DNA of 64,000 nt, taken from NCBI RefSeq assembly GCF_050320075.1, contig NZ_CP190018.1. One strand, written 5' to 3'. Positions 26,324-26,911 of the stretch are shown piece after piece. Position numbers and translations under genes: made by a program. The notes under the pieces were generated by a model, which saw only the letters and a list, made by a program, of their open reading frames with translations, was not told the DNA's origin and searched no databases. The number at the start of each line of letters is the position of its first letter. Positions within the stretch are counted from its first letter, which is position 1. The stretch is from Escherichia coli (GTDB taxonomy: Bacteria > Pseudomonadota > Gammaproteobacteria > Enterobacterales > Enterobacteriaceae).

Positions 26324-26476
26324 TTACAGTTGCCCGATGCGTAAGCTTATAGGGTCTACGCATTGGTGCAATTTATTGAATTTTAGTTTTTTTTAGGCCG
26401 GATAAGGCGTTTATGAACTGACCACCAAAACCTGGACAGTTTCAGTTAACCGGCTTTTTGATACTCAGTCCGGTAT

Positions 26477-26911
26477 TCAGGGCAAGATTACGAAAGCCTG
26501 CTCCCCGCAAGGACTGACGCGAGAAATGACATGAATCGCTCCCCTGCGGCGACTCTTGTCATAAGAGTGCCGGAGCGTTTTTCCATCAATTACAATGACG
26601 TCTTTATCATCTGAAGAATGGCAGTCACGCATCCAGTTAATAAAGCACTCGTGAAATTTTTCAGGACTGATACAGGATACAACTCTGGCAATGGTATCGT
26701 GAACAGGAATACCATTTTCAAAATCACCATATTGCTTCAAAAAATCGAGATGAGTTTCCCCAAAATCCTCTATATCTTCCCAACCTTCTGCACCAGAAAT
26801 AACGGCACAAATAGTCAAAAGTAGAATATCTGACAATTTATGCTCCACTTTCCAGTCTTGTCTGTAATCGGGGATAATAGAAATATGTTCCATCAATTTT
26901 TTAAGTTTCAT
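26477..26911 (-). mobile_element. 3'-truncated H-repeat (ISAs1-family) transposase gene, N-terminal fragment (yhhI-like)
   Basis: About the first 130 aa match the remembered H-rpt N-terminus ([17 protein letters not shown]...), then diverge and stop. Confidence 0.8.

Follow-up and report, generated by a model that had tools for sequence, protein, structure and literature searches.

The H-rpt locus adjoining yhhJ in the window (the whole 64-kb stretch of Escherichia coli DNA that was analysed) is very probably a non-autonomous, decaying remnant of an ISEc1 element of the ISAs1 family, which underwent one ancestral internal deletion of 713 bp and has been inherited in that form since. The remnant occupies the yhhJ-proximal edge of the RhsB island, the site of yhhI in K-12. 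What was very probably a single deletion with blunt endpoints removed codons 130-366 of the transposase gene and shifted its frame, leaving a 144-aa ORF that retains the N-terminal DDE_Tnp_1_assoc domain only, while both terminal inverted repeats and the original chromosome junction (an IS1397 end fragment, a REP half-site, and yhhJ) have survived. Since then, the remnant has probably descended vertically, or travelled together with its flank through homologous recombination, within one set of lineages that makes up about 5% of complete genomes and includes ST38, gathering point mutations and patches of conversion in its upstream part. The coordinates of all features are listed in Table 1.

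Table 1. Features of the H-rpt remnant and its surroundings (window coordinates).
Feature	Position	Strand	Basis or remark
yhhJ, ABC transporter permease, intact	25199-26323	+	ORF list; RefSeq annotation of JNEC-KY178
REP/palindromic-unit half-site GGCCGGATAAGGCG	26396-26409	.	alignment; STIN_95 match ends at about 26410
IS1397 (IS3 family) terminal fragment, about 64 bp	26414-26477	.	alignment; abuts the H-rpt end
Truncated transposase ORF, 144 aa	26477-26911	-	ORF list; domain and protein comparison
Whole H-rpt/ISEc1 remnant	26478-27055	-	blastn of the K-12 element; homology limits of other copies
yhhJ-proximal terminal inverted repeat (transposase 3' end)	26478-26492	+	CAGGGCAAGATTACG, read directly
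Retained last 47 bp of the element	26478-26524	-	3'-terminal 37 nt of the yhhI CDS, now out of frame, and the outermost 10 nt of the element
RefSeq pseudogene "ISAs1 family transposase; incomplete; missing C-terminus"	26513-26911	-	mapped from L002 6614-7012
Deletion junction	26524-26525	.	blastn against K-12; exact junction 50-mer in 275/5426 genomes
Rhs-proximal terminal inverted repeat (upstream of transposase)	27041-27055	-	CAGGGAAAGATCACG on the minus strand
IS630-family transposase gene, internal fragment	27047-27195	-	RefSeq pseudogene; sequence matches
sel1-repeat protein gene	27241-27720		in the module chain
Rhs C-terminal fragment	28034-28699		PF03527; internal stop annotated in near-identical JNEC-KY178
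yibA-like HEAT-repeat protein	28741-29598		in the module chain

Structure of the Remnant and the Internal Deletion

The rhsB-yhhH-yhhI-yhhJ locus of K-12, represented by strain DH10B (L001), was aligned with the window by blastn, a comparison which an earlier sequence-only reading of this DNA had proposed and which uncovered one internal deletion. Two gapless blocks were obtained: window positions 26200-26524 corresponded to L001 6301-6625 with 95.7% identity, and positions 26525-27061 to L001 7339-7875 with 94.2% identity. The 713 bp lying between them in K-12 (L001 6626-7338), equivalent to nucleotides 388-1100 of the 1137-nt yhhI CDS, are missing from the window. The remnant comprises 578 bp, namely nucleotides 1-47 and 761-1291 of the 1291-bp K-12 H-rptB (L001 6579-7869, in the window orientation); nucleotides 48-760 of the K-12 element are absent, and the usual full length of about 1.2-1.5 kb is not reached. 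The homology to ybfD, to ydcC/RhsE of O157, and to the O139:H1 copies stops exactly at both limits of the remnant. The identity of its 531-bp segment to the ISEc1-family transposase copies annotated by RefSeq in more than 5000 genomes is 92-96%.

The two terminal inverted repeats agree at 13 of 15 positions and, when extended, at 20 of 25. No target-site duplication was detected around the element, the flanks (...GTCCGGTATT and CCCTTTATTC...) sharing no direct repeat; the K-12 copy likewise has none, and its lack means that the original insertion of the element is not reconstructable. A comparison of the junction sequence revealed no repeat or microhomology longer than 1 nt at the two breakpoints; therefore, a repeat-mediated mechanism of deletion cannot be claimed.

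Distribution in Complete E. coli Genomes

A collection of 5426 complete E. coli genomes was searched with a 50-mer centred on the junction (26500-26549), each half of which is below the megablast word size. The exact 50-mer was found in 275 genomes (about 5%), once per genome and always on the chromosome. A 201-bp query, including the junction and 78 bp of the yhhJ-side flank, was fully covered in 274 genomes. The carriers originated from humans, pigs, cattle, poultry, dogs, gulls, and water, and 240 of them share the Rhs-side flank of the window (the IS630 fragment and the sel1 gene). The junction was not found in any other H-rpt copy among the approximately 24,600 places matching the 531-bp segment in all genomes. 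The 50-mer offers a clean single-copy lineage marker for about 5% of complete E. coli, including ST38.

An 80-bp junction query, which retrieved 1384 genomes, was dropped owing to over-counting, as ybfD-type copies were joined across a shorter gap. Strain XJ6.2, where the match ends at the left breakpoint, had been considered as a second allele, and it proved to carry a K-12-type copy with an IS903B insertion.

The Truncated Transposase Gene and Its Possible Function

In a tblastn search of the 64-kb window with K-12 YhhI, residues 1-133 were matched with 95.5% identity (E = 1e-82), and this was the sole H-rpt homology in the window; judged from these values, the assignment of the ORF to H-rpt/YhhI is far beyond what chance would produce. 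The ORF consists of 129 native codons, collinear with YhhI, and 15 out-of-frame codons unrelated to it, in close agreement with the earlier estimate of about 130 H-rpt codons followed by divergence and a stop. As 713 cannot be divided by three, the deletion throws the remaining 37 nt of the yhhI CDS into another frame, from which the 15 foreign residues and a new stop result.

Full-length YhhI contains PF13808 (DDE_Tnp_1_assoc) at residues 8-94 and PF01609 (DDE) at residues 102-343. The only Pfam match of the 144-aa product was PF13808 (E = 7.3e-35, residues 8-94, full profile coverage); no PF01609 match was obtained for the remnant protein, in which residues 102-129, the first 28 of the DDE domain, are all that stays of it. 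The deleted codons 130-366 encode most of the DDE domain, and their loss means that the catalytic core is gone. Autonomous transposition of the remnant is abolished. The earlier suggestion that the element had been immobilised is thus strictly true for autonomous movement only, as both inverted repeats survive.

The best reading of the remnant is a neutral, decaying pseudogene. Trans-mobilisation would be formally possible, and the structure invites comparison with MITE-like derivatives of insertion sequences, which arise by internal deletion, keep the inverted repeats, and have a disabled transposase, as does the remnant. Unlike MITEs, the remnant is unamplified, being present in one copy per genome at one locus and without a target-site duplication. 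A spread of the deleted derivative in the manner of MITEs was rejected, as the junction occurs once per genome in 275 of 275 carriers and with the same flank in 274.

It is very unlikely that the remnant is functional, whether as a MITE-like element mobilised in trans by an intact ISEc1 or through the 144-aa product as a trans-acting regulator or inhibitor of ISAs1-family transposition; the truncated protein, a presumed DNA-binding domain, would in the latter case bind ISEc1 ends and damp other H-rpt copies. A match to the deleted 713-bp segment is missing altogether from only 85 genomes, so that at least 190 of the 275 carriers hold DNA matching the catalytic segment in another copy and, with both inverted repeats of the remnant intact, mobilisation in trans would be conceivable; yet the single copy at one locus in each carrier gives no sign of proliferation, and not even an intact H-rpt has been seen to transpose (PMC3032704). 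The ORF is preceded by an AAGGAG ribosome-binding site 5' of its ATG. Of the four carriers translated, three have an uninterrupted ORF and a good ribosome-binding site, the window allele being intact in both respects, so that the N-terminal fragment might conceivably be expressed. However, a premature stop at codon 20 (W20*) in strain GF43 points to neutral decay, and the promoter scan returned only a 9/12 site on the minus strand (26953-26925), such sites being no better and no commoner than in shuffled sequence. If the remnant did act as a regulator or could be mobilised, the 578-bp derivative would represent a domesticated regulator and not debris.

Relative to K-12, the retained 129 codons contain five nonsynonymous nucleotide changes (four amino acid changes) and five synonymous ones, which are too few, and in part older than the deletion, and hence say nothing on selection. 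A substitution at 26856 is private to the window allele and places Asp at codon 19, a position occupied by Ala in other carriers and by Thr in K-12.

Age and Origin of the Deletion

The O139:H1 strain W13-16 has the identical junction and a different flank directly past 27055 (an Imm57 pseudogene and IS2). It differs from the window by 20 mismatches in 733 bp (about 3%), which are clustered at 26938-27044, where the W13-16 sequence resembles other H-rpt copies. A junction-linked variant, G at 26521, is common to every carrier examined. The occurrence of the same junction in a haplotype that is about 3% divergent and has another Rhs-side flank indicates that the deletion is old, fixed, and inherited. 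An undeleted ancestor of this H-rpt lineage was not sampled, the best full-length copies being at most 95.3% identical over the 531-bp segment, and the ancestral breakpoint sequence is accordingly read from diverged copies. These data fit one old deletion, which would have been followed by point mutation, patchy conversion of the upstream end, and exchange of the flank on the Rhs side.

The two different Rhs-side flanks and the divergent haplotype would also be expected if the same deletion had arisen repeatedly at a hotspot, independently in several lineages. We regard such recurrence as highly improbable: the breakpoints offer neither a repeat nor microhomology that could drive it, the junction is base-identical and linked to G at 26521 in all carriers examined, and none of the other H-rpt copies at the approximately 24,600 places searched has it. 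Moreover, the divergence that might speak for separate events is found at the upstream end alone and looks like conversion by other copies. A single origin of the deletion accordingly remains the favoured reading, and the identical single-copy junction in 275 genomes, including the divergent haplotype, lends no support to the ongoing erosion of the Rhs 3' flank that had been proposed for this locus.

The yhhJ-Side Flank

The RefSeq annotation was mapped from strain JNEC-KY178, which is 99.9% identical to the window (offset 19899). The stop codon of yhhJ is located at 26321-26323, and rbbA and yhiI precede the gene. The first gapless block covers yhhJ, the spacer, and the element end, all collinear with K-12. 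The IS1397 fragment was recognised from an 85-bp match of 95% identity to the end of an annotated IS1397, and the same end fragment is present in K-12 (L001 6515-6578). Genomes without the RhsB island, such as strain STIN_95, have a complete palindromic unit, and their homology to the window is lost at about 26410. From these alignments, the yhhJ-proximal border of the RhsB island, including that of K-12, looks like an IS1397 which had inserted into a REP sequence and was afterwards cut short at the H-rpt end. Carriers differ in the length of the T-run at 26382-26389, the O139:H1 strain having one extra T.

The distance between the ORF stop and the yhhJ stop is 153 bp, close to the approximately 150 bp noted earlier, compared to 164 bp for the intact yhhI of K-12, because the frameshifted stop lies 11 bp past the native one. 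The divergence of the ORF after codon 129 and its stop so near to yhhJ had been taken by the sequence-only reading to mean that the deletion removed the rest of the element and fused the gene to the yhhJ 3' region. A terminal deletion of this kind, taking everything past codon 130 or so together with the element end and joining the stump to the yhhJ 3' flank, is refuted by the K-12 alignment, since the 47 bp past the junction are an authentic element end with its inverted repeat, the whole of 26200-26524 matches K-12 without a gap, and the spacing to yhhJ is that of an intact yhhI, the frameshifted stop alone accounting for the difference. A sequencing or assembly artefact, or a full-length gene with a frameshift only, can practically be dismissed: no support for it was found, 713 bp are missing compared to K-12, and 275 complete genomes, each assembled independently and together covering many laboratories and hosts, share the identical junction. 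The earlier view that an H-rpt gene of the ISAs1 family had been cut by a true deletion, and not by a sequencing-derived frameshift in a full-length gene, is borne out by the same observations. The locus has little biological weight, being a further decayed insertion-sequence copy that borders an Rhs island; with its anatomy corrected to an internal deletion that spares the ends and the flank, it should not be mistaken for a case of flank erosion.

Prior Annotation and Related Elements

RefSeq/PGAP assigns the pseudogene call "incomplete; missing C-terminus" in every carrier inspected. The 144-aa product belongs to a public 90%-identity protein cluster of 1199 entries, mostly named "ISAs1 family transposase, partial", a label of partial ISAs1 transposase that RefSeq also gives to many defective H-rpt copies. 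By descent the remnant is, on sequence grounds, a member of the ISAs1 family, and it encodes no functional transposase.

The mobile-element table published in 2019 for strain 28Eco12 (ST38) lists "ISEc1 369367..369900" as truncated and formerly part of an Rhs element (PMC6963479). In this genome (NZ_CP038505), the junction 50-mer is located at 369345-369394, and the listed ISEc1 interval corresponds to window positions 26522-27055; the truncated ISEc1 of 28Eco12 is the same allele as the window remnant. That paper records the larger fragment only and mentions neither the retained 47-bp end nor the internal nature of the deletion (PMC6963479). Both the kind of object and the specific allele were already known; what is new is the correction to an internal, frameshifting deletion that leaves the ends and the flank intact.

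The closest known counterpart is the K-12 H-rptB/yhhI, which has the same site and orientation (RhsB island/yhhJ), inverted repeats, and yhhJ-side junction as the remnant, and is 94-96% identical to it over the retained 578 bp. Unlike the K-12 element, the remnant lacks 713 internal bp (the DDE core), is frameshifted, and has another Rhs-side flank. Defective H-rpt copies with large deletions were reportedly described in K-12 by Zhao et al. in 1993 (J Bacteriol 175:2799), including the RhsC-linked H-rpts and the min-5 fragment. The RhsC-linked, min-5, and ybfD-type defective copies are also linked to Rhs elements and broken by internal deletions or in their reading frames; in contrast to them, the breakpoints of the remnant are specific to the yhhJ-side locus.

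The Rhs-Side Flank and Neighbourhood

The K-12 Rhs-side flank contains a HEAT-repeat pseudogene and yhhH, whereas the window has the IS630 fragment and the sel1 gene. The IS630 fragment separates the H-rpt end from the sel1 gene and apparently shares 9 bp with the H-rpt inverted repeat; its identity is 90% to an IS630 pseudogene of Nissle 1917 and 82% to ISEc40, and neither K-12 nor the O139:H1 haplotype has it. Orphan toxin-tip and immunity modules form a chain downstream of the main Rhs core gene, which extends over approximately 27241-32640 and is far more extensive than the rhsB-yhhH arrangement of K-12. In addition to the genes listed in Table 1, it contains two NTF2-fold immunity proteins, split pentapeptide-repeat pseudogenes, and a DUF6258 protein.

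Within approximately 25900-27400, strain Ec-U3 (NZ_CM192149.1), otherwise 100% identical, has gained about 777 bp through an insertion that is annotated as IS1. This insertion in a sister genome shows recent IS activity in the same region, and it is probably the reason for the count of 274 instead of 275 genomes with the query comprising the flank and the junction.

The H-rpt terminal sequence recurs as a 14-nt copy (GATGATCTTTCCCT) at 27252-27265, about 200 bp past the real element end, where it overlaps the final codons of sel1. The arrangement is the same at the RhsE-linked H-rpt of O157 (L006 2569-2597), where the motif is doubled about 195 bp past the element end, and window positions 27185-27265 are 80% identical to the O157 RhsE flank. 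The 14-nt motif may be what is left of an H-rpt end that was older or extended further.
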